The translations under genes were made by a program, and so were the position numbers. Positions 1 through 61,116 of a stretch of DNA of 64,000 nt are shown in pieces. Location of the stretch: positions 38,023 to 102,022 of the forward strand of contig JBDTWD010000003.1 in assembly GCA_040006915.1 (NCBI GenBank). Direction: 5' to 3'. The stretch comes from Candidatus Woesebacteria bacterium (GTDB taxonomy: Bacteria; Patescibacteriota; Microgenomatia; UBA1400; UBA12028). Position 1 is the stretch's first letter, and every line of letters starts with the position of its first letter. Below the pieces are notes generated by a model. It saw only the letters and a list, made by a program, of their open reading frames with translations, made no database searches and was not told the DNA's origin.

Positions 1-305
1 CACCGTGTCTCAGTTACCTTGTGGCCGATCACGCTCTCACGTCGGCTACCCGTCGTCGCCTTGGTGGGCTTTTACCCCGCCAACTAGCTGATAGGGCGCA
101 GGCTCCTCTCATAGCGTCTTACGACTTTGATCTTGCGATCACATGCGGTATTAATTGGCCTTTCGGCCAGCTATTCCCCACTACGAGGTAGATTCCTACG
201 CGTTACTCACCCGTCTGCCGCTAAACTTATATTGCTATAAATTTCGCTCGACTTGCATGCTTAAGGCACACCGCCAGCGTTCATCCTGAACCAGGATCAA
301 ATTCT
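1..305 (-). rRNA. rrs: 16S rRNA, 5' ~305 nt (gene continues beyond window start)
   Basis: Reverse complement of 220-305 reads AGAATTTGATCCTGGTTCAGGATGAACGCTGGCGGTGTGCCTAAGCATGCAAGTCGAGCG, the canonical 16S 5' end. Window position 1 is the reverse complement of GGTAACTGAGACACGGTG (~E. coli position 320). Confidence 0.9.
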
Positions 306-607
306 TAGGAAAATTTTCAAAAAATTAACAAAATTAAAAGAATTGAACGGATTTTAACTTGTACACACGAAAAATTTTATTCTCTCGTGGTCAAGCAAAA
401 TCCGTCAAAAAAGACTGTTTTGGCTTACCACGATGAAAACGGTTGGTTTCGTGTTCATTCAAATATAAAGCATTCTTCAATTGTAAAAGAGCAAAAAGAA
501 TATGTTCTAAAGACGAAAAAACCCCAGGTTGCTGGAGTTTTAATTCATGCAAACCTTGAAGGTGATGTCTAGAACATATGGGTATAATACCAACTCCCCA
601 GAGAAAA

Positions 608-4960: not shown

Positions 4961-5701
4961 TTATTTTCCTACTACATCTACTATACAATTACGAAAGTAT
5001 CGCATCATCGGAATCACGTATGGATAGTCAAAGCGACTACTTCCTACCACACCCAACCAACTTCGATGCCCACCGGCGGTGAATTTGGTAAAGATAAAGC
5101 CGACAGAATCTAAAGACGTATTCCCTAATTCTTCACCAAAAACGATTTGAACTGGTTGTTCTCCTTCAAATTTCTCAAAAATCTCCATCATTAAACTGGT
5201 TTCATCAATCAGGTTTAACACCGCTCGCATTGCATCAATATCAAAGAATTCAGGCATGGAGAGGAGTTGGGCTGACCCTGAGATAAACAACTGTCCATCA
5301 TCGGTCATAGCAAAGCCGACTGAGTGCGCACGTTGTGCCAAGATTTTAGTTGATTCTTGTAACAAAAGGTTTAAATGGGTGCGTCGTTGCCAAATGCGTT
5401 CTTTGAAAGAGACTTCTTCAGCAACTGAGAGATCTTTCTCTCGCATTAAGTCACGAACATACACTTTCATCGCCAAAGACGTGGGACTGCGCCCGGCTGA
5501 GGTGTGTGGCTGCTTTAAGTACCCATGTTTGGTCAAGTAGACCATTTCATTGCGAATAGTTGCCGGAGAAACACCAAGACTATATTTGCGATCAATAGTG
5601 TCAGAACCGACAGCCTCGGCAGTATTAATATACTCCTCGACTACGGCTCGTAAAATTTGGACTTGTCTTGAGGTAAGGTCAATCATAGCTAACTGCGTCA
5701 A
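4961..5701 (-). CDS. hrcA: heat-inducible transcription repressor HrcA
   Basis: N-terminal wHTH (LTSRQVQILRAVVEEY...), HrcA-length protein, first gene of the dnaK operon, CIRCE immediately upstream. Confidence 0.85.
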   Translation of the reverse strand: MTQLAMIDLTSRQVQILRAVVEEYINTAEAVGSDTIDRKYSLGVSPATIRNEMVYLTKHGYLKQPHTSAGRSPTSLAMKVYVRDLMREKDLSVAEEVSFKERIWQRRTHLNLLLQESTKILAQRAHSVGFAMTDDGQLFISGSAQLLSMPEFFDIDAMRAVLNLIDETSLMMEIFEKFEGEQPVQIVFGEELGNTSLDSVGFIFTKFTAGGHRSWLGVVGSSRFDYPYVIPMMRYFRNCIVDVVGK

Positions 5702-5708
5702 AGACGAG

Positions 5709-5735
5709 TTAGCAGTAATAATAAACGAGTGCTAA
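5709..5735 (-). promoter_or_regulatory. CIRCE operator (HrcA binding site)
   Basis: TTAGCAGTA-N9-GAGTGCTAA inverted repeat, one mismatch from the consensus TTAGCACTC-N9-GAGTGCTAA, 8 bp upstream of the hrcA start. Confidence 0.8.
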
Positions 5736-5746
5736 GAGTCTGTCAA
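5718..5746 (-). promoter_or_regulatory. sigma70-type promoter of the hrcA operon (-35 TTGACA, 17-nt spacer, -10 TATTAT inside the CIRCE loop)
   Basis: Minus-strand reading: TTGACA (5741-5746) + 17 nt + TATTAT (5718-5723). Classic CIRCE-overlapping arrangement. Confidence 0.55.
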
Positions 5747-6210
5747 GTGGAGGAAGATTGGCGTCGTTTCACGAGTTCCCTTGGGGAAAGTTTGCGTGTA
5801 GCGAATACTTTTTCATTGATTCCCAACACCGAACCGACGCCGAATAAGGCAATTGCTCCTCCGGCGACGAGCCAGGTTTCAAACCCGGTCTTCGGGGAGT
5901 GCTTTAGCTTCGCAGAAAGTGAAGCAATTGGTGTGGGGCTTGGGCTTACCTTAGGTGAAGGCGAAACTGTGGGTTTTGGCGTAGTCGTTGGACGAATAGT
6001 CGAGGCTGGGGTAGGTGATGTGGTCCCTGCTGCACATGAACAGGTCGAGGATGAGGGACAACTATTTAAACGACAAACACCAACATAACAGCGATATCCA
6101 GAGCTACAATCTCCATCAACCTCACATTTTTGGTTACACATATTAGTCTGTGCGTAGACAGGGGCAACCGAAAACAAAAGGAAAAGTAGTGTTGTTGCAA
6201 TTTTTTTCAT
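5743..6210 (-). CDS. secreted Cys-rich surface protein: signal peptide, one 8-Cys module, Pro/Thr/Ser linker, SPKTG-like sorting motif + TM + basic tail
   Basis: MKKIATTLLFLLFSVAPVYAQ signal peptide. CNQKCEVDGDCSSGYRCYVGVCRLNSCPSSSTCSC has the same 8-Cys spacing as the repeats at 40.2 kb and 51.7 kb. ...HSPKTG-FETWLVAGGAIALFGVGSVLG-INEK...RKLSPRELVKRRQ. Confidence 0.6.
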   Translation of the reverse strand: MKKIATTLLFLLFSVAPVYAQTNMCNQKCEVDGDCSSGYRCYVGVCRLNSCPSSSTCSCAAGTTSPTPASTIRPTTTPKPTVSPSPKVSPSPTPIASLSAKLKHSPKTGFETWLVAGGAIALFGVGSVLGINEKVFATRKLSPRELVKRRQSSST

Positions 6211-6265
6211 ATTCGGGCGTAGTATACCCGAATAGAAGGCGGTTTACAACTGAAAAAGGGAGGGT

Positions 6266-6559
6266 TTAGTCGATACGCCTACGCTTCTTTCTCACCTCCA
6301 GCCTATTGTCTGCAGGTATAAACATCACCGAATACTCTGATGGCAAGAGGATCGGTTCACGCCCCTTAAGCTGATTTCTCTCCACCACCACAAGGGTACC
6401 AGCTATTCGTATAACAAAATATTCCGTTCCCAATTTGTCTTTTCCTTTAACCACAACACATTCAAACATGTGTACATATTCACCCTTACCATTCACATCT
6501 ATCAGTTGAGAAATTGGTTTTAGTTCGATCAGTTGTTTTTCTTTTGTCTTTAATTCCAT
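6266..6559 (-). CDS. hypothetical protein (97 aa), possibly small beta-barrel
   Basis: Clean ORF, basic C-terminus, no recognised motif. Confidence 0.4.
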   Translation of the reverse strand: MELKTKEKQLIELKPISQLIDVNGKGEYVHMFECVVVKGKDKLGTEYFVIRIAGTLVVVERNQLKGREPILLPSEYSVMFIPADNRLEVRKKRRRID

Positions 6560-6577
6560 ATTCTTTCTAGAAGAGAG

Positions 6578-7639
6578 TTAAATAATAATCCCACCACCAT
6601 AACACGTGTCTTGATGATAGAAAACAGCACTTTGGCCAGATGCCACTCCCTGCTGTGCTTCGCACAGATTGATTTTATTTCCCTTCAGCGTACAGGGAAT
6701 CAATTGCCCTGTATGCCGGATTCTGACCATTAACTTTTGGTCGTCTTCGCCTGATGATGAGCGAATCCAGTGAATGTCTTCAATTTCAAACGTATCTTTA
6801 TATGTCTCTGCACCAAAGCCAACAACCAGTTGGTTTTTCTCCCCATCTTTATGGATGACATAAAATGGCGGAATTGCATGCTTATCGATTCCTTCAATGG
6901 TTTTGACCACAAACGCATCATCAAACCCATGTCTCTGCCCGATGGTATAAAACCATAAGCCTTTGTGTCGTCCAATAACTCTTCCTTTGGTATCAACCAC
7001 ATCACCAGGATTCTCACCTAAACGATCTTTTAAGAAGTTGTGGACGTTGATCTCACCAATAAAACAAATCCCCTGACTATCAGGCTTGGTGGCCGTCAGT
7101 AATTCATATTCTTTCGCCAATTTTCTAACTTCTGGTTTGGTCAAATGCCCGATGGGAAAGAGAACATGTGAGAGTTGCTCTTCACGTAACCGATATAAGA
7201 AATAGGTTTGATCTTTGTGTTCATCAACGCTGCGAACCAGCGCATTATCTATAATCTGTGCATAATGACCGGTTGCCACGGCATCAAACCCTTGCTCCAT
7301 CGCCCAGTCATAAAAAAGCCCAAATTTAATTTCTTTGTTACAAAGCACATCTGGATTTGGAGTCTTTCCAGCTTTATACGTCTCAAAGAAATATTCAACT
7401 ACTTTTTGTCGGTACGCTTCTTTGAAATCCAGTACTTGAAATGGAATACCCAATTTTAAAGCTATCGCCAATGCATCTTTCCGATCTTCTTCCGCTCGGC
7501 AGCCTGGAGCTCGCCAGCATTCCAAAAATACTCCGGTCACGTCGTAACCAGCTTTCTGCAGAAGAACCGCTGAGACTGAGGAGTCTACTCCTCCTGACAT
7601 TCCCAGAGCGATTTTTTTTCTTGTATTATCTTGCGCCAT
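6578..7639 (-). CDS. mnmA: tRNA-specific 2-thiouridylase MnmA. Start at MAQDNTRKKIALGMSGGVDSS; the track ORF extends to 7762.
   Basis: PP-loop SGGVDSS and MnmA-length body with conserved Cys residues. Confidence 0.9.
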   Translation of the reverse strand: MAQDNTRKKIALGMSGGVDSSVSAVLLQKAGYDVTGVFLECWRAPGCRAEEDRKDALAIALKLGIPFQVLDFKEAYRQKVVEYFFETYKAGKTPNPDVLCNKEIKFGLFYDWAMEQGFDAVATGHYAQIIDNALVRSVDEHKDQTYFLYRLREEQLSHVLFPIGHLTKPEVRKLAKEYELLTATKPDSQGICFIGEINVHNFLKDRLGENPGDVVDTKGRVIGRHKGLWFYTIGQRHGFDDAFVVKTIEGIDKHAIPPFYVIHKDGEKNQLVVGFGAETYKDTFEIEDIHWIRSSSGEDDQKLMVRIRHTGQLIPCTLKGNKINLCEAQQGVASGQSAVFYHQDTCYGGGIII

Positions 7640-7696
7640 GAGGCAATTATACCAAGAGAGCGTTTTTTCTCTAAAATCGTGTAAAATAGCTAGAGT

Positions 7697-8740
7697 ATGT
7701 TCACTGTAAAACCACTTTTCTTCTCTCGTACTACCCCCACCGGCCCACAGCCATATCAACATTTAGATGCTGCGATGCAGATGGTGATTGATGAGGCGGA
7801 AAAACATGGAATGCACTGGGAATTATTGACAGATAGTGATGTGGTTGCAGTGACGTATAAAGGAAAAACCAATTATTTTCGTAACCGTGCTCCCTCTACA
7901 ACTCACGTTCCCGCCACTAAAATTTGTCAGAATAAAGCCGCAACTAGCGCCTTCTTGCGCAAAGCCGGTGTATGTGTTGTTAAAAGTTTGACTGTGTATT
8001 CTTCCGATTCAAAAGAGTATCTCCAGGCCGTGTGGGATACCCTTGCCAAACCGTTGGTGATTAAACCAGCACAAGGAATGCATGGAGATGCTGTCCATGT
8101 CGGAATTGCTGATCAAGCAGAATATTTTTCACTGATTCAAAGTTATTTTGTTCAACCTCTCTATGGTGGTGGCCTTGTCATCGAAGAAATGTTTTCCGGA
8201 AAAGAATATCGCATTATGGTTACCCAGGAAAAAGTTCTCGCCGTCATTGAGCGAATCCCGGCGTTTGTGACTGGAGACGGAGAACACACTATTCGAGAAT
8301 TAATCAAATTAAAGAATCAATTGCCCATTCGTAATGTCTCCCAAGATATTTATCCTCACATTAAAATTGATGATGACTTACTTGCCACTCTTAAACGACA
8401 AGAAAAAGACATTGAATCTGTTCCTACAAAAGATGAAACAATTCATTTACGTCGGGTTTCAAATGTAATGGCGGGTGGAGAAACGGTGGACCGAACCGAT
8501 GAGATTCATCCTTCGGTTGCTAAAATTGCAATGCAAACCATTCAAGCTATTCCAGGATTAAGTTGGGCGGGGATTGATTTCATGACTACAGATCTTTTCA
8601 GCGAACAAAATGAAAATTCCTACCGAATTATCGAAGTAAACGCAGCTCCAGAGTTTGATATGCATGAGTTGCCAATGCAAGGAAAAGCACGCCCGGTCTC
8701 TTTCGAATTTTTGAAACTTATGTTTCCCGATCTTTCGTAG
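7697..8740 (+). CDS. ATP-grasp domain protein resembling the N-terminal ATP-grasp domain of cyanophycin synthetase (stand-alone, no Mur-ligase domain)
   Basis: KPAQGMHGDAVHV..., EYRIMV..., RIIEVNAAPEFDMHELPMQGKARPV resembles the CphA EVNAAPG..MH motif region as I recall it. Confidence 0.55.
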   Translation: MFTVKPLFFSRTTPTGPQPYQHLDAAMQMVIDEAEKHGMHWELLTDSDVVAVTYKGKTNYFRNRAPSTTHVPATKICQNKAATSAFLRKAGVCVVKSLTVYSSDSKEYLQAVWDTLAKPLVIKPAQGMHGDAVHVGIADQAEYFSLIQSYFVQPLYGGGLVIEEMFSGKEYRIMVTQEKVLAVIERIPAFVTGDGEHTIRELIKLKNQLPIRNVSQDIYPHIKIDDDLLATLKRQEKDIESVPTKDETIHLRRVSNVMAGGETVDRTDEIHPSVAKIAMQTIQAIPGLSWAGIDFMTTDLFSEQNENSYRIIEVNAAPEFDMHELPMQGKARPVSFEFLKLMFPDLS

Positions 8741-9716
8741 CATCTGATATTTTGTCAAAGAAGTTCATTTTCCCAATTTCTAACAAACTCTTTTTGTACC
8801 CTGCCATATTTTCAGTGATAAAAGTGGGAAGGAGTAACGGTTGAACAGTCGACAACGGCTTTAGCATATCAACATCTTCTTGGGCAATTTTACCAATGTA
8901 TAAATCAGTAGGATCAAAATCGCGTTTTCGTAACCACTTCCAAACTTCAATCGCACCGCTAAAATAAATTTGATCTTTCGGAAACGCCCCTGGTTTAGAG
9001 GTATCGACGATTCCACGCTTCACTCGAACGCTAATATCAAAACGTCTCTCCCGATCGGAGATATGATCTTTCAACATCGCATACACTTCACTGAATGAAT
9101 GTGCCTGTGCGTAAAAGACTGCAAGATAGTTAATCGCTTGAAAAACCAATAATTTATTCTCTTTGGGAATTTGAGAATGAAGAACTGCCAATCCTTCTTC
9201 CGTTACAAAATGTGGATGGAGTTTTAATTCCTTGGCTTTTGATCTCCATAACTGTTGACGATCGTTCATCGAACGAATTTGGTGAGTTCCGATTTCGTGA
9301 TACAGCATCCCAAGCAACCCTGACTGGGTATACTCAACGGGCAAACGAATAATTAACGTATTCTTGTACATAGAAGTACGCGCTACAGTGCTGCGAGTAA
9401 ATTGAAGAGTAATGATTCGCGACAAATTTTCATGTTCCAAAAAAGCTACTACAATTTTTTCAACATCTTCTTTCGATAAAAGCGGTTCTTTTTGATCTGT
9501 TTTTTCAAACGCAGGAGACAGTGCATTTTTTTCTGCATAATCTAGAACTTTTTCAGCTAACGATACATATTCAGAGGAAACTCCTCCATATCGTTGCAGC
9601 TCTTCAGGACTCACAGGATCGGTATACGAAAATTGTGGATTGTATAAGGGATCAAAGAAAAACTTTTTCTTCTCCTCTTCCAAATTCGCTGGTAATATCC
9701 GTTGAATAAACGTCAT
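8718..9716 (-). CDS. DUF1704-like protein (QEGLA-motif family) with HExxH, putative Zn-dependent peptidase/amidase
   Basis: HEIGTHQ (HExxH) and FVTEEGLAVLHSQ (QEGLA-like motif). 332 aa. Confidence 0.55.
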   Translation of the reverse strand: MTFIQRILPANLEEEKKKFFFDPLYNPQFSYTDPVSPEELQRYGGVSSEYVSLAEKVLDYAEKNALSPAFEKTDQKEPLLSKEDVEKIVVAFLEHENLSRIITLQFTRSTVARTSMYKNTLIIRLPVEYTQSGLLGMLYHEIGTHQIRSMNDRQQLWRSKAKELKLHPHFVTEEGLAVLHSQIPKENKLLVFQAINYLAVFYAQAHSFSEVYAMLKDHISDRERRFDISVRVKRGIVDTSKPGAFPKDQIYFSGAIEVWKWLRKRDFDPTDLYIGKIAQEDVDMLKPLSTVQPLLLPTFITENMAGYKKSLLEIGKMNFFDKISDATKDRET

Positions 9717-9717
9717 A

Positions 9718-11040
9718 TCATTCTCCGATCAAAAAGCCGCCCATATCTTTTCGTCCAATTTCTACATTATGTTTTAATGCAGTTAGTTTTTTGGTGATCA
9801 CCATTTGAGTAGTAATTACTCGATGCTTTAATTTAAATTTCACTTCTACCACTGGAACTTTCCCTTCCCCTTCTTCTTCTTGCTTCCATAACAAATCAGA
9901 TTCATCAGTCAAGCCTAGTTCTTTGGCTTTTGAAATAGCAATTGCACTGCGGAATCTTCCAGTATTCATCAGCGCTTCTACTTCGTGTGGTTTGTCATTC
10001 TCATCAAAAATCGTAATTACTTCTTTTGGAGCCACGATCGTTCGCTCTCCCTCCAAATCCACTAAAGTGACTGTCTCCGTAAAAAGTGACTGTGCGATCT
10101 TTACTGCATGGGACACGGATCTAGCTTCAATTTCCTCAATTCGCTCAAGTCTGCGCCGTAAGCCCGAACGATTTGCCAATTGAATCGAAAGACCAGGAGC
10201 GCGATTGAGCTCGGCAATCATCGGTCCTTTTTCAGGATGCACAAAAACATCCGCTCCCATATACACAAAACCTGTCGCATTCGCACTACGAACTGCAGTT
10301 TTTAAAACATCTACCCAATACGGGATTTTGATCCCTGCGGTTTTAATGTTCGTATGAGGAAACAGATCAAAAATCTGATTACCGCCACTTACTCCATGTG
10401 TCGTCTCGCCAGTTCCTAAATCAATCCCAAGTGCCACGGCTCCCTGATGCAAATTGGCTCTACCTCCTGACGCTTTGGTCGGAATACGAATCATCGCCAT
10501 CACCGGAATTTTGTTAAACACAATCACGCGAACATCTGGAGTTCCCATTTCAACATACTGTTCAAGGTCAGGATGCACTGGTACTCGTTCCTCAATCAAA
10601 ATAATGGGAAGACTCCCCCAGGTACTATATTCTCCCTCCAAGATATTTCGACCATGTAAGATTAAATCTTCACGAGTAAACGGTTTCTCTTCTAGGTCAA
10701 TCCAAATTGCTTCCCCTTTTTTCTTGCGCTTGATGACCATCACACCCTTTCCTGCACTGCCATTCGCTGGCTTAATCACAAATGATGGGCCGCAAATATT
10801 CCAATCGAATTCTTGGAGTTCTTCCAATGAAGAAATTTTGGCAAACAATTTGGCAACTGTTATTCCATGTTTAGCCAAAAAGTTCTTTGCTCGCAACTTA
10901 CTGGTACCAAATTTCGTTGCATCATGAGAGTTTAATGGCTCATAAAGCATGTTGCGCGCATTCAAACCCAAGATATCAGAGAGTTTTACCATAGAGTATG
11001 TTATTCCTGCTCTTCGGATAGACGACGGAATCGAATCCAT
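9718..11040 (-). CDS. RimK-like ATP-grasp amidoligase (alpha-L-glutamate-ligase-like) with N-terminal extension
   Basis: ATP-grasp body: FVIKPANGSAGKGV, ...ILIEERV..., ...MIAELNRAPGLSIQ. An additional ~100-aa N-terminal domain is present. Confidence 0.7.
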   Translation of the reverse strand: MDSIPSSIRRAGITYSMVKLSDILGLNARNMLYEPLNSHDATKFGTSKLRAKNFLAKHGITVAKLFAKISSLEELQEFDWNICGPSFVIKPANGSAGKGVMVIKRKKKGEAIWIDLEEKPFTREDLILHGRNILEGEYSTWGSLPIILIEERVPVHPDLEQYVEMGTPDVRVIVFNKIPVMAMIRIPTKASGGRANLHQGAVALGIDLGTGETTHGVSGGNQIFDLFPHTNIKTAGIKIPYWVDVLKTAVRSANATGFVYMGADVFVHPEKGPMIAELNRAPGLSIQLANRSGLRRRLERIEEIEARSVSHAVKIAQSLFTETVTLVDLEGERTIVAPKEVITIFDENDKPHEVEALMNTGRFRSAIAISKAKELGLTDESDLLWKQEEEGEGKVPVVEVKFKLKHRVITTQMVITKKLTALKHNVEIGRKDMGGFLIGE

Positions 11041-11924
11041 TCAGTGAATCGCAGGCCAAGATAGCGACCGATGACAAAGTTTAAAAGTCCGATCAATAAG
11101 AACGTCAGTTCAGGATATAAAAGCACAAATGATTGGATTAACTGTGAACGAAGTACTAAGGTACACAGTACCCCTAAAATAAATGTTTCAAACACACGTT
11201 GAAGCGCGACAGTCGAAGAACTCGCGCTAGAGATCTCCAAGAAGTTCTCAGAAAGTAAAATCAGAATTAACAGTGCAAATACGTTTAACACTGAGAGTGA
11301 AAGTAACTGAACATAGGTAGAAAGAACTAAGAGCCCGAACACTCCAAAAGAAACCAACCACAGAATCATAGCTGTACGTGGAAGATAAGGTAATTTAAAT
11401 CCCTGCAATAAACGTCTTCCTATTGTCGCAAACAGTAGAATGGAAAAAAACAAAAAGCTGCCTCTAAACATTCCCATTGATAACAAGGCAACAGCTAGAG
11501 CCGCTGGCGCATACATGGACAGGCCTGACAATCCAATGATGTGACGCGCAAAGGCAATCAAACTTGCAACCAACGGGAAGATCAAGATAAAGGCAACAGT
11601 CGTCGCGCTCACCCCATTATCCACAGCGCGTCGCACTGCGTATTGGAGAAAGTTTGTTGGACCAAAATTTCCCAGTTTTTCTGTCTGTAAAATACTTTCC
11701 AAGCGATCGGCAGTTTGCCCACTCGCCTGTGTAATATTCCCTTCGTTGACTAACGGTCGTGATTCTTTAAAAATGACACCGCTTTCTGAGGCACTACTAC
11801 TCGCTTCCGATGATTCAGTTGCGACAGCGTCAGTTGGAAAAAATCGAGTATCTTGGGCAAAGACAGTTGATCGTGAAACTGAAAGGAAGAAAACGAATAC
11901 ACTGAGGGCAAAGATTTTTTTCAT
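11001..11924 (-). CDS. signal peptide + ~90-aa periplasmic region + 7-TM membrane protein (7TM-transglutaminase-associated type). Likely start MKKIFALSV at 11924.
   Basis: Seven hydrophobic helices counted in the C-terminal 230 aa. N-terminal cleavable signal (VFAQD). Confidence 0.55.
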   Translation of the reverse strand: MKKIFALSVFVFFLSVSRSTVFAQDTRFFPTDAVATESSEASSSASESGVIFKESRPLVNEGNITQASGQTADRLESILQTEKLGNFGPTNFLQYAVRRAVDNGVSATTVAFILIFPLVASLIAFARHIIGLSGLSMYAPAALAVALLSMGMFRGSFLFFSILLFATIGRRLLQGFKLPYLPRTAMILWLVSFGVFGLLVLSTYVQLLSLSVLNVFALLILILLSENFLEISSASSSTVALQRVFETFILGVLCTLVLRSQLIQSFVLLYPELTFLLIGLLNFVIGRYLGLRFTEWIRFRRLSEEQE

Positions 11925-12006
11925 GTCTATAGTATAGTACATCCGGCAACGAAAAGCCCCCCGATGTATCACCGAGGGGCTTCCATTTTTCAAAAACTAT
12001 TTTCCC

Positions 12007-12756
12007 TTATTTCAAGGCTTCGTCTAAGGCCTTTTGGAATTCACTGTATGGTTGCGCTCCCACGAGGAGTTTTCCATTGATAATGAACGTTGGGGTTCCA
12101 CTAGCGCCTACTTTTGCTGCCAAAGCATTATCATCGTCAATCTTTTGTTTAAACTTGCCATCGGCAATACACTTCTTGAATTGATCGACATTAATACCGA
12201 CATCTTTGGCATAGCCTTCAAACTTGGCTTTAGGATCAGCTTCATTTACCCAAGCATCTTGGTTGCCAAACAACTTGTCATGCATTTCAAAATACTTCTT
12301 TTGGTCTCCTGCACATTCAGCAGCTTCTGCACCAATGTGAGCGTTCGGGTGGAATGGAAGAGGAAGATTTTGTACAGCATAACTAATCTTATTGGTATCA
12401 ATATAATCCTTCTTCAGCTGACCATATGTTTGGGTAAAGTACTGTCCACAGAATGGACATTGAAAGTCAGTAAATTCAACGACTGCAACTTTCGCACTTT
12501 TGTTCCCTTCAATATGGACTGAATTTCCAGTCACTTCTTTCCACTGATCATCAGTTAATTGAGTTACAGGTTCAGCAGGAGCTGCGGCAGGAGCGGCTGC
12601 TGTTGGTGCCGTGGCTGCACTTCCACCTAATGACATTCCTCCAGCTTTCCACATCATGACAAACACCAGTGCGATCGCAGCTAGTGATACCGCAGAGACG
12701 GCACGAGTGACAACTTCAACTACTGTTGCCCACTCTTCAAATAATCGCTTATCCAT
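12007..12756 (-). CDS. membrane-anchored DsbA-like thiol:disulfide oxidoreductase
   Basis: N-terminal TM, Ala/Pro linker, thioredoxin fold with CPFC active site (FTDFQCPFCGQYF). Confidence 0.75.
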   Translation of the reverse strand: MDKRLFEEWATVVEVVTRAVSAVSLAAIALVFVMMWKAGGMSLGGSAATAPTAAAPAAAPAEPVTQLTDDQWKEVTGNSVHIEGNKSAKVAVVEFTDFQCPFCGQYFTQTYGQLKKDYIDTNKISYAVQNLPLPFHPNAHIGAEAAECAGDQKKYFEMHDKLFGNQDAWVNEADPKAKFEGYAKDVGINVDQFKKCIADGKFKQKIDDDNALAAKVGASGTPTFIINGKLLVGAQPYSEFQKALDEALK

Positions 12757-12825: not shown

Positions 12826-13758
12826 TCAAGACTCAAGCCACCATTGTGCATCAAGCGCTGCCATACATCCAAGTCCCGCCGCTGTTATCGCTTGCTTATA
12901 GCGATAATCTACACAGTCTCCGGCAGCAAACACCCCTTCTACCGAAGTCATGGTTGGATAGTTAGTCAGACCCTGACGCACTGTAATAAATTTTTTCTCA
13001 TCCAGCTGAATTTGAGCTGAGAAAATTTCTGTTGAAGGCTTATGTCCAATCGCAACAAATACTCCATCGGCTGGCAATTCTTTTATTTCGTGCGTGTTCA
13101 CATCTTCAATTACCAGAGTTTCAACTTTCGCTTCGCCTTTAATTTCTTTGGGAACTGCATTCCAAATCACTGAGACTTTCGGATTTGCTAATACTCTATC
13201 CTGCATGATTTTACTGGCTTTAAAGCTATCTCTTCGATGAACAAGCGTGACAGATTTTGCAAATTTGGTTAGTGCTAACGTATCTTCCATTGCTGCATCT
13301 CCTCCACCAATCACGTAGGTATTTTTTTCTTTAAAGAATGCGGCATCACAGACGGCACAACTACTCACTCCCCGCCCAACCAGTTTCATTTCACCAGGGA
13401 TACCAAGCCACACATTTTCAGCTCCGGTTGAGATGAGTATCGCTTTAGCTTGAAACTCTTCTTCTCCACTCCATACTTTAAATGGACGGGCTGAAAAATC
13501 GACTTTAGTGATATTTTTATCAATGATCTGCGTTCCAAAATTCTTAGCTTGATCCCGCATATTCTGCATAAGGAGAGGACCATCCACTCCTTGTGGAAAT
13601 CCTGGATAGTTTTCAATCACTGTGGTAAGCATTAATTGTCCACCAGCTTTTTCTCCAGCAAAAAGCAGAGGAGCTAAATTTGCCCGTGCTAAATATGTAG
13701 CCGCAGTCCAACCACTTGGTCCTGAGCCAATGATAATAACGTTATGGATTTCATTCAT
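12826..13758 (-). CDS. trxB: thioredoxin reductase
   Basis: IIGSGPSGWTAA (FAD), CAVCD redox-active disulfide, GGGDAAME (NADPH), 310 aa. Confidence 0.9.
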   Translation of the reverse strand: MNEIHNVIIIGSGPSGWTAATYLARANLAPLLFAGEKAGGQLMLTTVIENYPGFPQGVDGPLLMQNMRDQAKNFGTQIIDKNITKVDFSARPFKVWSGEEEFQAKAILISTGAENVWLGIPGEMKLVGRGVSSCAVCDAAFFKEKNTYVIGGGDAAMEDTLALTKFAKSVTLVHRRDSFKASKIMQDRVLANPKVSVIWNAVPKEIKGEAKVETLVIEDVNTHEIKELPADGVFVAIGHKPSTEIFSAQIQLDEKKFITVRQGLTNYPTMTSVEGVFAAGDCVDYRYKQAITAAGLGCMAALDAQWWLES

Positions 13759-14327
13759 ATGTTTTTTGTCTCCTCTATCATCTGATCTATTTTCCCGGAT
13801 TCTAAAAGTGTTTGAATCAATGGTAATAATCTGACCGCATTGGGTGGCATTAAGATCGAGCCGTTTTCTACGCTGGTGATCAAATCAACAATATCAAAGA
13901 ATCTCACTTCTTGTGCTTCAACAGTATTGAATCCAGGAAAAGGCCCTTCGTGCAGACCATAGAACATTGCCCAAAACTCGGACTCATGCACTCCTGGTTG
14001 GAATATTTTCATCCAGTGGGTAAGAGGGACATTCACTCCTAATTCTTCACTGAGTTCACGAACCGCAGTTTTCTCATACGAATCGCCGCTGTTAACATGA
14101 CCTCCCACAGAAAATACCCAGTACCCAGGAAACATATCTTTTGTCATGCTCCGCTTTTGCATCAAAAGATGTTTTTTTTTGTTAAAGATATAGACACCGG
14201 CAGCACGATGAATGAGTTTGGGATCGCTATGTACTTGTTTGCGAGTGGCTGTTCCAAGGACTTCGTCCTCCTCGTTCACAACATCATAGACTTCTTCCTG
14301 ATTATCAGTGGTATTGGGATTGTACAT
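13755..14327 (-). CDS. NUDIX hydrolase
   Basis: Nudix box GGHVNSGDSYEKTAVRELSEELGV. Confidence 0.75.
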   Translation of the reverse strand: MYNPNTTDNQEEVYDVVNEEDEVLGTATRKQVHSDPKLIHRAAGVYIFNKKKHLLMQKRSMTKDMFPGYWVFSVGGHVNSGDSYEKTAVRELSEELGVNVPLTHWMKIFQPGVHESEFWAMFYGLHEGPFPGFNTVEAQEVRFFDIVDLITSVENGSILMPPNAVRLLPLIQTLLESGKIDQMIEETKNI

Positions 14328-14334
14328 ACGACAA

Positions 14335-14673
14335 TTATGCCGCCATTACTTTAGTGATCATTTCACGATATTTCTCTTCTCCACCAAATCCAATTTGACG
14401 ATCTGCTTCGACCATTTCACCTTTCTCATTTTTCTTGAAAGCAACCACAGTCGGAATACTCATAATTCCATAGTTACCGGCAATGTTTGTGGCATCCGTA
14501 TCAACTTTAACGATTTTCACCTTCCCAGCAAATTCGTCTGACAATTTATCGATAATTGGAGCAGCCATCTTGCATGGTCCACACCATTCGGCGTAGAAGT
14601 CCACAATCACTGGAGTCTCTGATTTTAAAACCTGATCTGTAAATTGATCATCGGTTAAGTGTGCTGCTGCCAT
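14335..14673 (-). CDS. trxA: thioredoxin
   Basis: WCGPCK active site, 112 aa. Confidence 0.9.
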   Translation of the reverse strand: MAAAHLTDDQFTDQVLKSETPVIVDFYAEWCGPCKMAAPIIDKLSDEFAGKVKIVKVDTDATNIAGNYGIMSIPTVVAFKKNEKGEMVEADRQIGFGGEEKYREMITKVMAA

Positions 14674-14682
14674 ACGGTCCTT

Positions 14683-14934
14683 TCAAGTCATTTCGACTAA
14701 TGTTTTTAATATACGATCAAAATCCTCAGGGGTTCTACATCTCGCACAACGGCTGGCTTCATCGGCGAGTAAATCCTTGGCTACACCAGAGAGTGCGCTA
14801 CGGGATGCCGCCACTTGCTGCACAATATCCAAACAAGAACGCTCTTCTTCATACATAGCAAGGACTCCATTAAGTTGTCCAATAATCTTCTTTAATTTAA
14901 GCGCTACCGCGTCTTTTCCAAGGTCAACAGCCAT
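14683..14934 (-). CDS. CsoR/RcnR/FrmR-family (DUF156) metal/thiol-sensing transcriptional repressor
   Basis: 83-aa all-helical protein with Cys at ~33 (RSCLD) and a C-A-R-C pair at ~63-66 in the W-X-Y-Z sensing positions (Cys where CsoR has His). Confidence 0.6.
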   Translation of the reverse strand: MAVDLGKDAVALKLKKIIGQLNGVLAMYEEERSCLDIVQQVAASRSALSGVAKDLLADEASRCARCRTPEDFDRILKTLVEMT

Positions 14935-14969
14935 ACTCTATGTATACTCCCCCACAGTATCGGTGTCAA

Positions 14970-15446
14970 CTACAGTTGTACCGAATCTCCAATTTTAATT
15001 CCCCTCTTTTGTACTTCCCCAGCATTCATCTCCAGCACATGAGTCACTGGTGTGATTGGTGAATAGAAACGTAAAGCTGAATCTGGCTCTCCTTTCTGGG
15101 CTGAGACTTTTTCGGTCAAATCAACGACCTTGTTTGAATCAATCCAGACGAAATCCAAGTCAAAACGCATATCTTTCATCCAAAATGTAGGAATATCACG
15201 AGCTGGCATCACAAACAGCATGCCATCACTTCCTAGTGTATCTCTTTTTCCTAATCCCAAGGTGATTTCTGGTATGGTTTTGGCACGCTCAATAGCAAGT
15301 TTCTGAGAACCAACAGTAATCGTGTCTTGGCTTTCATTTTGCGTCACTGGCGATTTCTTGAGAATGAAAGAGCCTAAAAGAAAAATCGCCACGATTGTTA
15401 TCAGTAGTAAAATGATTTTCTTCATAAGAAAGTCTTCAACTCCCAT
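14970..15446 (-). CDS. DUF192 family protein with N-terminal TM
   Basis: N-terminal TM then a DUF192-like body (LFVMP...DMRFDLDFVWID...). Confidence 0.55.
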   Translation of the reverse strand: MGVEDFLMKKIILLLITIVAIFLLGSFILKKSPVTQNESQDTITVGSQKLAIERAKTIPEITLGLGKRDTLGSDGMLFVMPARDIPTFWMKDMRFDLDFVWIDSNKVVDLTEKVSAQKGEPDSALRFYSPITPVTHVLEMNAGEVQKRGIKIGDSVQL

Positions 15447-21648: not shown

Positions 21649-23349
21649 TTATGCAATCGACGCAAGCTCTTTTACCGTGGTAATTTGTTCTACTTTTTTA
21701 TCGTCCCTGAATCGCTCAAGCCTTGGGAAACGTAAAGCAAGACCCGCGGAATGGTTCGGAGATTTGGTCAGTTCGTCCCCTGCTACTTCTACCACAATCT
21801 GTGGATCCACCCATACATCGGGAATAAGAAGTTTGTCGACTACGTACTGCTTTGGTTTTTCTGCTGTGACGACCGATTCACATCGAGTTTTAAACTCACG
21901 CCATTGATCATCGGATAATCCGGTGCCAACTTTGGAGAGTGTCACAATCTGTTCGCCATTAGCTACTCCGATTAAGAAAGCGCCAACCCCAAACTTATTA
22001 CGTTTGCCTTTGCCATACCAATATCCCATGACTACCGCATCGATCGTATCAGAGAGCTTGGCTGCTGTCCCTTCTGCTTCTTTAAACTTCACCCAACTCC
22101 ATCCACGTCTACCAGGCTGATAGACGCTGTCGTACTGTTTGATGACTGCCCCTTCCAAGCCTTTAGCTAATTGCTCCGTATGAAAAGCTCGTAGTTCATC
22201 AGCAGACTCGGTCACGATGAATGGAGAAACAATAAACATCTCATCGGCTTTTTGTAAAAGCTTGGCTAGTATTTCTTTGCGTTCAAAAAGTGGTAAACGA
22301 AGAAGACTCTCTCCATCTTGGTATAAAACATCAAACACGAAAAACTTAAGAGGAATATTTTTTGCAAACTCAGCGACATCATGTTTGCGTTTACGTTGAA
22401 TGGTTTCCTGAAACGGAAGCAACTTTCCCGTTTTAGGATCAAAGCCAACCGCTTCACAATCTAAAATCAAAGAATGAGAAAATCCTTTGATTGCCGCGAG
22501 GAGTTCCGGAAACTGGGCACTCGATTCTTCCATTGATCGCGTGAAAGTGCGGACCGTCCAGTCTTTTCCTTTTCCATTAATATGAATTTGAACTCGGGTA
22601 CCATCATATTTTGGCTCTGCAAATACCTTGGTCATTTTTTCAATCATTTCGGCGGCAGTTTTAAGTCGTTGACACAGTGCTGGTTGTAAAGGAATACCAA
22701 GTTCAATATCGAAATGTTCTAGTCCTTTTTCTCCATGTAAGAGATATGCTTTTGCCAATTTTCCAATATCGTTTTTGAGTTGATACGTGTCTTCAAGCAA
22801 TTTTCGTTGACTTTTGTCTCCCATCTTTGCCCAGGACAATGCATCAAGGATCGTCATGTCTGAAAACCCAAGTCGCAACTTGGTTAAGATAATGCGAACT
22901 ACATACTTTACTGAAACCGAGTCTAATTCTTTTAACAAATCGACAACTCTAATTACTTTCCGTTCTTGGCTCCCCTCGCCATTTTCATGTGCCAGGGCTG
23001 TCAGTTCACTATAAATTTCTTGAATACTCTTTTTTGATTCGTGCGTTTTCTCACCGGAGGAGTGTTGCACGACAGCTGCCAAGTCTCCGATTTTTTTGTA
23101 TTCAGCCTGCACGCTCTCAAGCTCTTCCTCGTAGGCAAGTGCGGTTGCCCGCATCATCATTTTGTCCGCGAATTGGAACTCTAAACCTTCATATGGAGGA
23201 AGAATGCGACCAAGAAGAAGCCAACAGGTTGCTTCAATTTCATTCGCTTCAAGCTTGTTTAACAGCTCAGCCAAAATCACCGTAATTTCATTACGGGAAC
23301 TGGTTTCTTCAATACGGGAAAGATAGGAAGCAAAAGCATGAAAGGTCAT
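21649..23349 (-). CDS. ATP-dependent DNA ligase
   Basis: Motif I EPKYDGTRVQ (KxDG) and 566-aa adenylation + OB-fold architecture. Confidence 0.85.
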   Translation of the reverse strand: MTFHAFASYLSRIEETSSRNEITVILAELLNKLEANEIEATCWLLLGRILPPYEGLEFQFADKMMMRATALAYEEELESVQAEYKKIGDLAAVVQHSSGEKTHESKKSIQEIYSELTALAHENGEGSQERKVIRVVDLLKELDSVSVKYVVRIILTKLRLGFSDMTILDALSWAKMGDKSQRKLLEDTYQLKNDIGKLAKAYLLHGEKGLEHFDIELGIPLQPALCQRLKTAAEMIEKMTKVFAEPKYDGTRVQIHINGKGKDWTVRTFTRSMEESSAQFPELLAAIKGFSHSLILDCEAVGFDPKTGKLLPFQETIQRKRKHDVAEFAKNIPLKFFVFDVLYQDGESLLRLPLFERKEILAKLLQKADEMFIVSPFIVTESADELRAFHTEQLAKGLEGAVIKQYDSVYQPGRRGWSWVKFKEAEGTAAKLSDTIDAVVMGYWYGKGKRNKFGVGAFLIGVANGEQIVTLSKVGTGLSDDQWREFKTRCESVVTAEKPKQYVVDKLLIPDVWVDPQIVVEVAGDELTKSPNHSAGLALRFPRLERFRDDKKVEQITTVKELASIA

Positions 23350-41115: not shown

Positions 41116-41189
41116 GGGCGTGTGGCGCAATCGGTTAGCGCAGGAAGCTTATACCTTCAAGGTTCCTGGTTCGAGTCCAGGCACGCCCA
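41116..41189 (+). tRNA. tRNA, anticodon loop CUUAUAC -> anticodon UAU (Ile, AUA-reading) by hand folding
   Basis: Acceptor GGGCGTG/CACGCCC, D-arm GCGC-AATCGGTTA-GCGC, anticodon arm GGAAG-CTTATAC-CTTCA (27-43 mismatch), variable AGGTT, T-arm CCTGG-TTCGAGT-CCAGG, discriminator A. CCA not encoded. Confidence 0.75.
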
Positions 41190-41395
41190 CAATCGTTGAA
41201 TAGGTTCATAAATTATGTGTGCTATGCCAGTTCTATCGAATGCGTGATACCATTTATGTAGTAGAAAAATGCATATATATGATTTCTTCTGTTCTCTGCC
41301 TACTTCTCATCAAACTTTAAGGCTTTTATGATATATATGTCTCGCGGTGATTCGACGTATAAACTGGGTGTACAATACACAAGTGAAAAGCAAAT

Positions 41396-43829: not shown

Positions 43830-46163
43830 TTAAAGCTTCGCTCGAACGGCTGTTTCTTGTTCCACAATATCTCGTGGACGACCGTATTTAATCCTTGAGA
43901 GCTCACGAATGAGTTCAGCGCGTTTGGGATCCATCAGTTTCTTCTCCCCTTCAATATCGCGCGTTAAGTCCATGCTAAATGGAGGAACAGGCTCGTTGTT
44001 CACAATGGTTTTGATGTAGACGTGATATTTTTCAATATTGGTTAAATCTGTTTCAGAAAATGTTGGCGCAAATTCATGTTGCAGAAAATTTGCATCCGGA
44101 ACACCAACACGGAAAGTTACCATCGAGCCAACGTTGCCAAAGACCGCGTTCTTTACGTCTTCTTCGATCTGAGCCACAAACTGGTTGGCAACAATCAAAT
44201 TTAGTCGGTACTTACGAGCTTCAGAAAGAATGGTAGCGAAATCTTCAGTTGCATAGTTTTGGAACTCATCGACGTAGAGATAGAAATCTCGACGCTGCTC
44301 CATCGGCATATCTTGACGACTCATGGCAGCCGTTAAAATCTTTGGCACCAAAATCAAACCTAAGAACTTGGCATCCTCTTCTCCCAATTTTCCTTTGGAT
44401 AAATTGACCAAGAGAATCTTTCCTTCATCCATAACCTGGCGGAAATTAAAAGCGCTTTGACTTTGGCCAATAATGTTTCGCATTACCTTATTGGTAATGA
44501 ATTTGCCAAATTTCGAAACGATGTAGTCTAGAACTTCAGACTTATGGAAATCACTCGTCTGGGCAATCTGGTCCGTCCAGTAGCGACGCACAACCGGATC
44601 TTTCACTTTCGGAAGCAGTTCCTGCACATACTTTTGATCAGTCAAACAGCGCACGAGTTCAATAAAAGTAGCCCCTGGTTCAGCCATAATAGTTAACATG
44701 GCGTTACGAATGGCATGCTCAAATCGTGGACCGATGATACCGGTTTTGTGTGGATCGTAGAGCTTGTACATTAACGCGATAATTGATCCCACCACAAAAT
44801 GCATCTGTTCTTCGGTCTGCGCTTCCATAATATTTAAACCCATCGGTCGTTCAGTATCAGATGGATTAAAGTAAATAACTTCTTCAGCTCGTTCTGGAGG
44901 GATAAGCTGCATGATATCTTCGACCAACTCTCCATGTGGATCCAAAACTGCCATCCCTTTTCCAGCTCTGATATCCTGCAAAATCATATCTTTTAAGAAT
45001 TCTGATTTTCCGGTACCAGTCTTTCCGACAATATACATGTGACGTTGACGATCTTTTTCCTCAATAAAGATCTCTTTCTTTGTCCCTCGATAATTACTTG
45101 AACCTAAGCGCATTCCAGAAGTTGCGATACTGGCCGGAGCCGGAGCCGACTTAGCTTTAAGCCAATTAATGTGGTGGGTTTCAACCGTTTTATTAGGGAA
45201 ATGCAGAATTGTAGACATCTCTTCAGAATTTAAAACAAATGCCCCGCGATCAAATAACGGCATGTAGCGATAAATGAAATCGACCATGAATAATTGCTTG
45301 AACAAAATTCTCGATCGCTTAAAGCTATTCGTTGGACTACTAAACTGAGCAAAAGCACCAAGAATGTTAGTTAAGTGAGAATTAGCCCTCCTGGCATCAA
45401 TTGATGAGACCACAACACGCAGAGCTACTTTAAATCCTGGTTTGGAAGCTTTGGTCTCAATGGCATCCAGTTTTTTAGGGTCATGATTATAGGAAGCTTT
45501 TTGTGGATCAGATTCTTTTTTCTTCGTATCGGCAACATACTTGCTTCCAGCTCGCTGCCATCCGGGACCAGCGGGCTCTAACACAAATTGCACAATTGCC
45601 CCCTCACCTTCATCCATTTTCGAAAGCGCTGAACTTAAGAGTGATAGTCCATCAGTGGGAAGATCTTTATATACTTTAATTGGTAGATACGTTTGACTGG
45701 CTAGAGTCAAAGCTGCAAACGCAACTTTGCCACCTTCTGAGAAAATATTGTATTCTTCCGCCTCTTCAATCTCTGCAGATGGATAGGCTCCATAAATTTG
45801 TTTTTCAATCAAATCAGTTAACTCCGCTGGAACCGTAACGTAAAAGGCAATGCTTTCGTGTAACGCCACAATTTCAAACGTAAAGTGATCTTCAGGTTTA
45901 AGAATTGATCCCACTCCTTCATTTTTTAAACTGTATAAACCGGCAAACATCTGTTCAGCTGCATCAATTTTTATTTCGTTCTCTTTAGGTAACAATACTT
46001 TGAGAACCTTAAAGCCAAGTGAGTATTTTTCTCTCCCACGGAATCGAAACCATTGGACAACCATATAGACGAGCCCTGCTCCGAAGATCAACGGGATCGC
46101 AAACAAGGCCAGGCTTGTGAGAATTTGGGTAACGACAATTGCAATATCAGTGGTTGGATCCAT
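43830..46163 (-). CDS. VirD4/TraG/TraD-family type IV coupling protein-like membrane ATPase
   Basis: Two N-terminal TM helices, Walker A YIVGKTGTGKSEF, Walker B FYLYVDEFQNY, C-terminal ...SEARKYRLNLIVANQFVAQIEE (TraG-D_C-like). Confidence 0.65.
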   Translation of the reverse strand: MDPTTDIAIVVTQILTSLALFAIPLIFGAGLVYMVVQWFRFRGREKYSLGFKVLKVLLPKENEIKIDAAEQMFAGLYSLKNEGVGSILKPEDHFTFEIVALHESIAFYVTVPAELTDLIEKQIYGAYPSAEIEEAEEYNIFSEGGKVAFAALTLASQTYLPIKVYKDLPTDGLSLLSSALSKMDEGEGAIVQFVLEPAGPGWQRAGSKYVADTKKKESDPQKASYNHDPKKLDAIETKASKPGFKVALRVVVSSIDARRANSHLTNILGAFAQFSSPTNSFKRSRILFKQLFMVDFIYRYMPLFDRGAFVLNSEEMSTILHFPNKTVETHHINWLKAKSAPAPASIATSGMRLGSSNYRGTKKEIFIEEKDRQRHMYIVGKTGTGKSEFLKDMILQDIRAGKGMAVLDPHGELVEDIMQLIPPERAEEVIYFNPSDTERPMGLNIMEAQTEEQMHFVVGSIIALMYKLYDPHKTGIIGPRFEHAIRNAMLTIMAEPGATFIELVRCLTDQKYVQELLPKVKDPVVRRYWTDQIAQTSDFHKSEVLDYIVSKFGKFITNKVMRNIIGQSQSAFNFRQVMDEGKILLVNLSKGKLGEEDAKFLGLILVPKILTAAMSRQDMPMEQRRDFYLYVDEFQNYATEDFATILSEARKYRLNLIVANQFVAQIEEDVKNAVFGNVGSMVTFRVGVPDANFLQHEFAPTFSETDLTNIEKYHVYIKTIVNNEPVPPFSMDLTRDIEGEKKLMDPKRAELIRELSRIKYGRPRDIVEQETAVRAKL

Positions 46164-60630: not shown

Positions 60631-61116
60631 CTATTCTAGAAACCCTTCCACAATCATATCTTCAGCAAGTTTCTGTGGGATTCCCCGGCTTTCTAGATAA
60701 AACAAATGTTCTTCAGGAATCCTTGAGATACTCGCAGCGTGAGAACATTTCACATCATCAGTCTTGATTTCGAGTTCGGGAATGGCTTCAGCTTTGGCCT
60801 TGTCAGACAGTAATAAAATTCGTTCCTCTAAAAATGACTGGGTGTCTCCACAGTCTTCCTCGATAATGATCCGACCAAAAAACCGAATATGGCTCTTGTC
60901 TTCTGCTACTCCCTTGAGTATCGTTTTGGCTCGCGTGTGAGGAGCTTTATGCACAATCGTTAAGTTAATGTTTATGTCATCATCATTTTTTCCGTGAAAC
61001 ATTCCTACGATTGATATTTCATCTCCAGGATTAAGAATTTCGACTCGATAGTCACCTGATTTGGTCAAGGTAATGTTTTTCATATTAGCCAACTGACCCT
61101 TCCATCTCATGATCAA
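60631..61116 (-). CDS. sufD: SufD-like protein, short form (161 aa, C-terminal SufBD domain only). TTG/alternative start likely.
   Basis: ...ILLLSDKAKAEAIPELEIKTDDVKCSHAASISRIPEEHLFYLESRGIP matches the SufB/SufD C-terminal signature (LEI..DDVKCSHGAT). Confidence 0.7.
   Translation of the reverse strand: MIMRWKGQLANMKNITLTKSGDYRVEILNPGDEISIVGMFHGKNDDDININLTIVHKAPHTRAKTILKGVAEDKSHIRFFGRIIIEEDCGDTQSFLEERILLLSDKAKAEAIPELEIKTDDVKCSHAASISRIPEEHLFYLESRGIPQKLAEDMIVEGFLE

Follow-up and report, generated by a model that had tools for sequence, protein, structure and literature searches.

We describe a gene for a small repressor of the CsoR/RcnR family that stands directly before the thioredoxin genes in a 64-kb stretch of DNA from Candidatus Woesebacteria (64,000 nucleotides of contig JBDTWD010000003.1, positions 38,023 to 102,022; the whole stretch is called the window below). 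The gene (14683-14934, minus strand) encodes 83 amino acids and was identified as an open reading frame (ORF) with a match to Pfam PF02583; the window holds one copy each of this regulator, of the thioredoxin gene trxA and of the thioredoxin reductase gene trxB. Judged from its operator and its gene order, the protein very probably represses its own gene by occluding the promoter, and in this way controls the thioredoxin system. The fuller reading, in which the repressor is a dithiol switch that forms a disulfide or persulfide, derepresses the thioredoxin genes and is reset by thioredoxin, is one that we consider moderately probable as a whole.

Results

The repressor belongs to the CsoR/RcnR superfamily

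The 83-amino-acid protein matched the Pfam model Trns_repr_metal (PF02583; CsoR/RcnR, formerly DUF156) with E = 9e-18 and 64.9 bits against a cut-off of 22.8, and the DUF156-family ORF that a preliminary description of this DNA had proposed at this place is therefore real. An identical protein is on record at NCBI as a 'metal-sensitive transcriptional regulator' from a metagenome-assembled genome (MAG) of Candidatus Woesebacteria, which places the window in a genome of the ultrasmall Patescibacteria. The AlphaFold2 model, built on the alignment, had a pLDDT of 88 and three helices (residues 5-29, 34-66 and 69-82). When this model was compared with the PDB using Foldseek, the best 18 matches were all CsoR-family proteins (CsoR, InrS, CstR and FrmR). 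The profile match, the fold and the operator described below all place the protein in the CsoR/RcnR superfamily.

A conserved operator overlaps the repressor promoter

The stop codon of the upstream DUF192 gene and the repressor start codon are separated by a gap of 35 nt, which reads on the minus strand TAG-TTGACA-ccg-ATACTGTGGGGGAGTAT-ACATAGAGT-ATG. Directly 3' of the DUF192 stop codon lies the -35 element TTGACA (14964-14969, minus strand), and a probable, unmapped -10 element, TATACA (14941-14946, minus strand), follows 17 nt past it and 6 nt before the ATG; both were read from the sequence. A pattern search revealed the operator ATACTGTGGGGGAGTAT (14944-14960, minus-strand reading), a TAC-N9-GTA pseudopalindrome with a G5 tract that represents a type-1 CsoR/RcnR site. 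It fills the promoter spacer and overlaps the -10 element. The preliminary description had suggested looking for a CsoR-type inverted repeat upstream of the gene (14935-14970), and this is where the operator was found. Exact ATACT-N7-AGTAT occurs only this once in the window. A generic inverted-repeat finder (seed 6) did not report the operator, whose arms of 5 nt are too short for it, nor did our consensus promoter scan list the promoter, as its rule needs T as the last -10 base; the promoter was read by eye and is supported by its conservation. Operators of CsoR proteins carry a TAC-X9-GTA motif, and the RcnR type-1 site reads TACT-G6-N-AGTA (PMC3902906); the window operator has the former motif and is nearly identical to the latter site.

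We then compared 23 clade loci from Patescibacteria, consisting of the window, one locus for which only the genes were available (P0003) and 21 further loci with DNA, drawn from genome, metagenome and assembly collections. The metagenome scan added only two clade loci; its other 21 matches were unrelated PF02583 genes, which served as negative controls. All 22 loci with DNA (the window and the 21 others) carried one ATAC(T/C)-N7-(A/G)GTAT site at the regulator promoter, where it overlapped the core promoter in every case and usually carried a G/C tract. Of 22 related loci, 21 had TTGAC(A/G/T) at the corresponding position. The consensus, written so that the G-rich strand is on top, was ATACT-NN-GGGGG-AGTAT. 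In four loci (L006, L050, L054 and L060) the site was ATACC...GGTAT, both half-sites having switched together from TACT..AGTA, as predicted for a protein-bound palindrome. A scan of 18 clade loci (141 kb) for a relaxed core pattern gave 27 occurrences, one at each promoter and 9 elsewhere.

Two promoter layouts were observed. In the first, which is that of the window, the operator begins 3-4 nt past the -35 element and its right arm overlaps the -10 element. In the second (L009, L010, L056, L057 and L061), the left arm itself forms the -10 element TATACT, 17-18 nt past TTGACA, and the right arm shares bases with the start codon in L009, L056 and L061. To judge from these positions, a bound protein would exclude RNA polymerase in both layouts. 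No Shine-Dalgarno sequence precedes the repressor ATG, and relatives show the same promoter geometry. The repressor mRNA is probably leaderless or nearly so, because the predicted -10 element ends 6 nt before the ATG. In several relatives (L056, L060 and L061) the database ORF begins too far upstream, so that it includes the promoter.

An operator-like sequence, ATACTacgcccgAATAT, is present at 6209-6225, with one mismatch in the essential GTA dyad. It has a TATACT-N7-..ATG layout and overlaps the start of an ORF (5743-6210, minus strand) for a secreted, Cys-rich, Pro/Thr-rich anchored protein with no Pfam match. This site could be a weak second target or merely a similar leaderless promoter.

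The regulator is linked to trxA and trxB across the clade

In the window, trxA, a NUDIX hydrolase gene and trxB follow the repressor directly on the same strand, with gaps of 9, 7 and -4 nt, in agreement with the preliminary description. The thioredoxin encoded by trxA (14335-14673, minus strand) carries the WCGPC motif and scored 106.9 bits with TIGR01068 (cut-off 96.8), in addition to matching PF00085; the gene starts 9 nt past the repressor stop codon and has its own Shine-Dalgarno-like sequence, AAAGGA. The NUDIX gene (13755-14327, minus strand) begins 7 nt past trxA. Its IDI/YfcD-like product matches PF00293, falls below all NCBIfam cut-offs, and resembles type-1 isopentenyl diphosphate isomerase (IDI) and YfcD, with Gly replacing the catalytic Cys of IDI (FSVGGH). 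The stop codon of this gene is overlapped by 4 nt by trxB (12826-13758, minus strand), which encodes a low-molecular-weight thioredoxin reductase with CAVC and HRRD motifs (TIGR01292, 389.8 bits versus 343.45).

The next gene, 69 nt further on, encodes a DsbA-like thiol-disulfide oxidoreductase anchored in the membrane by an N-terminal segment (12007-12756, minus strand; PF13462 and PF01323), and it is syntenic in most loci. The spacer between trxB and this gene showed no more folding than shuffled controls (z = 0.96), and a terminator was not detected there; the DsbA-like gene may belong to the same transcript as the thioredoxin unit. Terminator-like matches inside the NUDIX gene were rejected as operon breaks, being weak stems of 5-6 bp; such stems were more frequent than in shuffled sequence only when the entire region was considered.

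Across the clade, trxA was the next gene after the regulator in 23/23 loci. Of the 21 loci long enough to show it, 20 had trxB within one to three genes downstream; in the remaining one (L061) a glutamate dehydrogenase gene comes after trxA. Over these loci the identity of the regulator to the window protein falls to about 35-45%. The upstream neighbour changes from locus to locus, being DUF192/lgt, SfLAP, HGSNAT, an amino-acid kinase (AA_kinase), ApbE, DnaG, a helix-turn-helix protein (HTH_3) or a divergent two-component system; the regulator-trxA pair therefore survives turnover of its flank, and in four loci (L057, L059, L060 and L061) it is kept where both flanks change completely. In most loci the gap between regulator and trxA is 9-45 nt, with no terminator inside the unit. 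Three distant representatives from a profile search of 1.84 billion representative proteins were also linked to thioredoxin genes. Among the 37 PF02583 loci outside the clade, mostly proteobacterial, none had a TrxA or TrxB homologue within 3.5-4 kb.

The preliminary description had counted the NUDIX gene as a member of the unit, and this part did not hold up. Only the window, the P0003 locus and L002 carry the gene; it is missing from L003, where the regulator is 82% identical, and from all more distant loci, and the slot between trxA and trxB holds unrelated genes instead in other loci. For these reasons we regard the NUDIX gene as a recent lineage-specific insert or passenger, not a member of the module.

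Directly downstream of the thioredoxin genes, most relatives carry a glutamate dehydrogenase gene (GDH; ELFV_dehydrog), as in L051, L053, L054, L056, L057, L058, L059, L060 and L061, with a malic enzyme gene also in L058. The window has no GDH gene at the position after the thioredoxin genes. GDH and malic enzyme may provide a built-in NADPH supply for thioredoxin reductase.

Two invariant cysteines and a glutamate define an x-C-E-C fingerprint

The protein and the family profiles were aligned with HMMER to solved structures, namely 4M1P (CsoR of Geobacillus thermodenitrificans), 5FMN (InrS), 7MQ1 (CstR of Streptococcus pneumoniae), 4ADZ (CsoR of Streptomyces lividans), 2HH7 (CsoR of Mycobacterium tuberculosis) and FrmR, and the register was the same throughout. 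The results showed that Cys34 occupies the X site of the family and Cys63 the Z site, which is the C-terminal Cys of CsoR. The Y position, which is His in CsoR, InrS, RcnR and FrmR and the Asn55 'wedge' in S. pneumoniae CstR, is taken by Glu59. The fingerprint of the repressor is thus x-C34-E59-C63, of the x-C-x-C class. These alignments correct the preliminary description at two points: the N-terminal Cys, given there as Cys33, is Cys34 (the numbering was off by one), and the His position of CsoR, said there to hold a Cys, is occupied by Glu59, with Cys63 falling on Z.

Cys34, Glu59 and Cys63 were invariant in 25 homologues of at least 58% identity. In a wider set of 35 sequences, reaching down to 34% identity, these three residues did not vary either, nor did Gly19, Gln20, Met27, Gln40 and Ala43. 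Of these, Gln40 is the counterpart in the alignment of Gln81 of S. lividans CsoR, a conserved residue required for operator recognition (PMC3902906). An exception to Glu at Y was the L028 regulator, which has Ala. Cys66, the second Cys of the C-A-R-C motif, corresponds to Z+3 and is confined to close relatives of the window repressor: position 66 was C, T, A, S or E among the 25 homologues and C, T, A, S, E or I among the homologues overall. C-A-R-C was rejected as a sensing CxxC pair on the ground that Cys66 is not conserved. When all matches of the analysis were pooled, C-E-C was present in 182 of 276 aligned domains, versus 30 with C-H-C. This set includes the best representatives from the search of 1.84 billion proteins, and C-E-C was the dominant fingerprint among the best matches of that search.

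The fingerprints of the characterised metal and formaldehyde sensors were each tested and failed. Glu59 stands in the His position of the Cys-His-Cys ligand set of Cu(I)-CsoR. The H-C-H-H set of RcnR and the H-C-H-C set of InrS were not found, as there is no conserved N-terminal His and Y is Glu; nor was P-C-H-x of FrmR (Pro2 and His60), as residue 2 is Ala or variable and Y, again, is Glu. The N-terminus varies in length among the relatives, leaving no W ligand, and residue 2 is Ala or variable, not Pro. The residue before the first Cys is Ser33 in the window protein and is variable, and the second-shell Tyr of CsoR is absent. With the curated NCBIfam models, the repressor scored 43.4 bits for RicR (cut-off 175), 31.2 bits for RcnR (cut-off 138) and 26 bits for FrmR (cut-off 133). 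The protein is therefore not a CsoR, RcnR, InrS or FrmR. A match to a characterised metal-specific subgroup had been named in the preliminary description as evidence that would overturn its reading; the alignment produced no such match, metal- or formaldehyde-specific. What the protein does show is the CstR-type x-C-x-C arrangement: the X and Z cysteines are invariant, and neither W nor Y supplies a metal ligand.

In the AlphaFold2 model, Cys34 and Cys63 lie at opposite ends of helix 2, about 29 residues apart. With this separation on one helix, the two residues could pair only between subunits, and by homology we infer that Cys34 and Cys63' meet across the subunit interface, as in CsoR and CstR.

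Other features of the window

Downstream of the thioredoxin and DsbA-like genes lies a conserved trio (8718-11993, minus strand) that is syntenic in most Microgenomates loci and encodes a seven-transmembrane (7TM) transglutaminase-associated membrane protein, a 'sugar-transfer associated' ATP-grasp enzyme and a MATCAP-like peptidase. A second DsbA-like paralogue is encoded at 53028-53660 (minus strand). An intein that carries a LAGLIDADG homing-endonuclease domain splits SufB (61085-63697, minus strand). The sole tRNA of the window (41116-41190, plus strand) is a tRNA-Ile with anticodon UAU, not of the usual lysidine-modified CAU type. A 16S rRNA gene is represented at the edge of the window by its 5' part (1-312, minus strand). 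The window also contains an ATP-dependent DNA ligase gene (21649-23349, minus strand) and a gene for a TrwB/VirD4-like coupling ATPase (43830-46163, minus strand).

Discussion

Proposed mechanism

In the mechanism that we propose, the reduced repressor, presumably a dimer-of-dimers tetramer as in the rest of its family, would bind the single ATACT-N7-AGTAT operator and cover the spacer and the -10 element of the promoter (14941-14969), so that RNA polymerase would be blocked and the repressor-trxA-(NUDIX)-trxB unit, possibly with the DsbA-like gene, would be held at a low level. Cys34, at the start of helix 2, would face the Cys63 of the adjacent subunit, which closes helix 2 there, and the invariant Glu59 would lie alongside. 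Oxidation or sulfuration of the Cys34-Cys63' pair, to a disulfide or to a di-, tri- or tetrasulfide as in CstR, would lower the affinity for DNA and derepress the thioredoxin genes. Thioredoxin and thioredoxin reductase would then re-reduce the repressor, closing a homeostatic, self-limiting loop. Modification of Cys34 and Cys63' by oxidants or sulfane sulfur is suggested by the x-C-x-C fingerprint, the absence of a metal ligand set, the absence of efflux genes and the thioredoxin targets. The preliminary description had likewise proposed a thiol- or persulfide-responsive regulator of the thioredoxin system. Its claim of control over the thioredoxin genes is borne out by the operator in 22 of 22 loci and by trxA in 23 of 23; the structural argument that it drew from C-A-R-C was wrong, and the thiol or persulfide signal is a deduction.

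Several findings weigh against the proposed mechanism. The repressor scored 69 bits with the CsoR profile, 63.5 with InrS and 62 with S. pneumoniae CstR, so that the scores do not set the clade closer to CstR than to CsoR or InrS. Some relatives keep Glu59 and lack one Cys (C-E-L, C-E-G, A-E-C, V-E-C and others); a strict dithiol mechanism does not account for these proteins. In L009, L056 and L057 the gap between regulator and trxA is 140-300 nt without a second operator, which makes co-transcription less certain in these loci. The genes upstream of the unit are on the same strand, and read-through transcription could bypass the operator. Finally, the inducer is deduced only from the residues and the regulated genes. 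The single-Cys, Glu-keeping relatives include the representatives P0153, P0154, P0158 and P0163.

Alternative explanations

An explanation that we regard as improbable, though not negligible, is that the repressor senses Cu(I) or another thiophilic metal through Cys34, Cys63 and perhaps Glu59, with thioredoxin repairing metal-damaged thiols. Most characterised PF02583 proteins sense metals, the best sequence match in the PDB is the Cu(I)-CsoR 4M1P, and CstR-type Cys pairs bind Cu(I) in vitro (PMC8643695). The residues speak against it: Glu replaces the His ligand, the Tyr before the first Cys is absent, the N-terminus is too variable in length to supply a W ligand, and the RicR, RcnR and FrmR scores lie far under their cut-offs. 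The gene content does so as well, as none of the 23 loci has an efflux gene, copA/copZ included, in the unit, and a screen of ten window ORFs, among them every one above 550 amino acids, turned up no metal pump. One relative (L050/L058) does carry genes for an HMA-domain P-type ATPase and a CopZ-like protein just upstream, but the ATPase cluster of L058 has its own ArsR-type regulator, and the sole operator there precedes the CsoR-like gene. The copper role that L050 had suggested was rejected as a general explanation. The L058 cluster (5062-9121), which as a whole lies directly upstream of the CsoR-like gene, consists of genes for the ArsR-type regulator, the heavy-metal P-type ATPase, a fusion of DsbD_2 and cupredoxin, and the CopZ-like protein.

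We assign an equally low probability to a non-thiol response centred on Glu59, or to a constitutive autoregulator that sets a basal thioredoxin level. The retention of Glu in relatives that lack one Cys hints that this residue does more than assist a dithiol. Set against this, both Cys residues are invariant across the sampled thioredoxin-linked clade and Y is Ala in L028, the small CsoR-type fold has no known ligand-binding pocket, and the regulated genes point to thiol redox.

Sensing of an electrophile or aldehyde by S-alkylation of Cys34, as in FrmR or quinone sensors, with thioredoxin induced as part of the electrophile response, appears unlikely. The family does include FrmR, which relies on the equivalent Cys35, and the one-Cys variants would fit single-Cys alkylation; but FrmR needs Pro2, whose amine is cross-linked to Cys35, and here residue 2 is Ala and the N-terminus variable. 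No aldehyde or quinone detoxification gene is linked to the unit, and Cys63, invariant in the core clade, would be superfluous for a single-Cys mechanism.

That the adjacency is merely inherited gene order, with the repressor controlling itself or distant genes and trxA and trxB expressed independently, is very unlikely: the pth, MFS, lgt, DUF192, DsbA-like, 7TM and ATP-grasp genes are also syntenic across Microgenomates, and the regulator-trxA gap is long in some loci, but the pair outlasts complete change of both flanks, its gaps are short and free of terminators in most loci, and the only good operator per locus is the one at this promoter.

Comparison with known systems

The mechanism that we propose for the clade repressor, a dithiol switch reset by thioredoxin, corresponds in its sensing step to that of CstR (Staphylococcus aureus, Enterococcus faecalis and S. 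pneumoniae; 7MQ1), in which persulfide is sensed and an intersubunit Cys-Cys (poly)sulfide releases the DNA (PMC8643695). The two share the fold and the x-C-x-C fingerprint, in which X and Z are Cys and Y is a residue other than His; both also have a palindromic operator with a G/C tract. The residue before the first Cys is Asp in CstR, and it is often Asp in the clade too. They differ in several respects. The clade has Glu at Y, whereas S. pneumoniae CstR has its N55 'wedge'; the similarity to CstR, at 62 bits, is not above that to CsoR or InrS; and the clade repressor is found in Patescibacteria. CstR controls rhodanese, persulfide dioxygenase, SQR, CoA-persulfide reductase and TauE, whereas the clade repressor would control trxA, trxB and often GDH; sulfide or persulfide detoxification targets of the CstR type were not found in the clade loci, where the downstream genes are trxA, trxB, GDH and the DsbA-like gene. 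The repressor would work most like CstR, yet we do not class it as CstR because its regulon differs, its Y residue is Glu and the scores do not favour CstR over CsoR or InrS.

Cu(I)-CsoR (M. tuberculosis, Bacillus subtilis, S. lividans and G. thermodenitrificans) provides the best sequence match in the PDB (4M1P), with identical positions of the two Cys residues and the shared Gln, and likewise has a TAC-N9-GTA operator over the promoter of an autoregulated gene. The clade differs in having Glu for His, no second-shell Tyr and no copA/copZ in the unit. As regards RcnR and FrmR, the clade consensus is essentially the Escherichia coli RcnR type-1 site, and some clade members have a type-2-like site, ATACCCC-N-GGGGTAT, rather than type-1; the clade lacks the H-C-H-H set of RcnR and the P-C-H-x set of FrmR, and its operator is a single site, not tandem.

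Thiol switches that induce trxA and trxB in disulfide stress, with feedback by thioredoxin, are known from sigmaR-RsrA of Streptomyces and Spx of Bacillus. These act as an anti-sigma factor or as an activator that binds RNA polymerase, not as a DNA-binding repressor, and share no homology with the clade protein. A closer parallel in logic is RexT of Nostoc, a member of the ArsR-SmtB metal-sensor family that detects H2O2 by forming a disulfide; its target is trxA2, whose product, TrxA2, returns it to the reduced state (PMC8960804). RexT is thus a metal-sensor relative re-purposed as a Cys-based oxidant sensor that represses a thioredoxin gene and is reset by thioredoxin, as we propose for the clade repressor; RexT differs in its unrelated winged-helix fold, its vicinal intramolecular disulfide and its phylum. 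Within the CsoR family, TTHA1953 of Thermus thermophilus binds DNA best when reduced and controls the Sox pathway (PMC10318464). Its non-metal targets illustrate the diversity of targets in the family; its regulon is a different one and has no link to thioredoxin.

Significance

In a large study of the CsoR family by sequence similarity network, thioredoxin is not mentioned, the CstR persulfide sensors make up clusters 3, 4 and 10 of PF02583, and clusters 6-9 are uncharacterised (PMC8643695). Full-text searches that linked the CsoR family with thioredoxin or with bacteria of the candidate phyla radiation (CPR) found nothing within the library searched. Matches for 'DUF156' together with thioredoxin were false positives (DUF1566). 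The wiring of a CsoR-family regulator to the thioredoxin system appears to be undescribed within that library, in keeping with the preliminary description, whose author knew of no published account.

No means of sensing oxidative or thiol stress is known for Patescibacteria/CPR bacteria, and a survey of Patescibacteria MAGs found no oxyR, soxR, soxS or rpoS (PMC8672522). The present finding offers a plausible candidate for the missing redox regulator, consisting of a repressor of about 80 amino acids, a 17-bp operator and a defined thioredoxin regulon, conserved across many lineages of the phylum. As these parts are small, the protein, the operator and Trx/TrxB could be reconstituted in vitro without cultivation. 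More tentatively, and as a possibility that we put forward with less than even confidence, the x-C-E-C branch might be the main, perhaps the only, thiol-redox stress regulator in a large part of Patescibacteria, replacing OxyR, Spx and sigmaR-RsrA; a disulfide or persulfide switch would drive trxA and trxB, together with an NADPH-producing GDH or malic enzyme where present, and be reset by its own product, with Glu activating the sensing Cys or serving it as a catalytic residue. The signals known for the family are Cu, Ni/Co, formaldehyde and persulfide. The clade described here would add to it a fifth output class, thioredoxin and redox homeostasis, and a new fingerprint, x-C-E-C.

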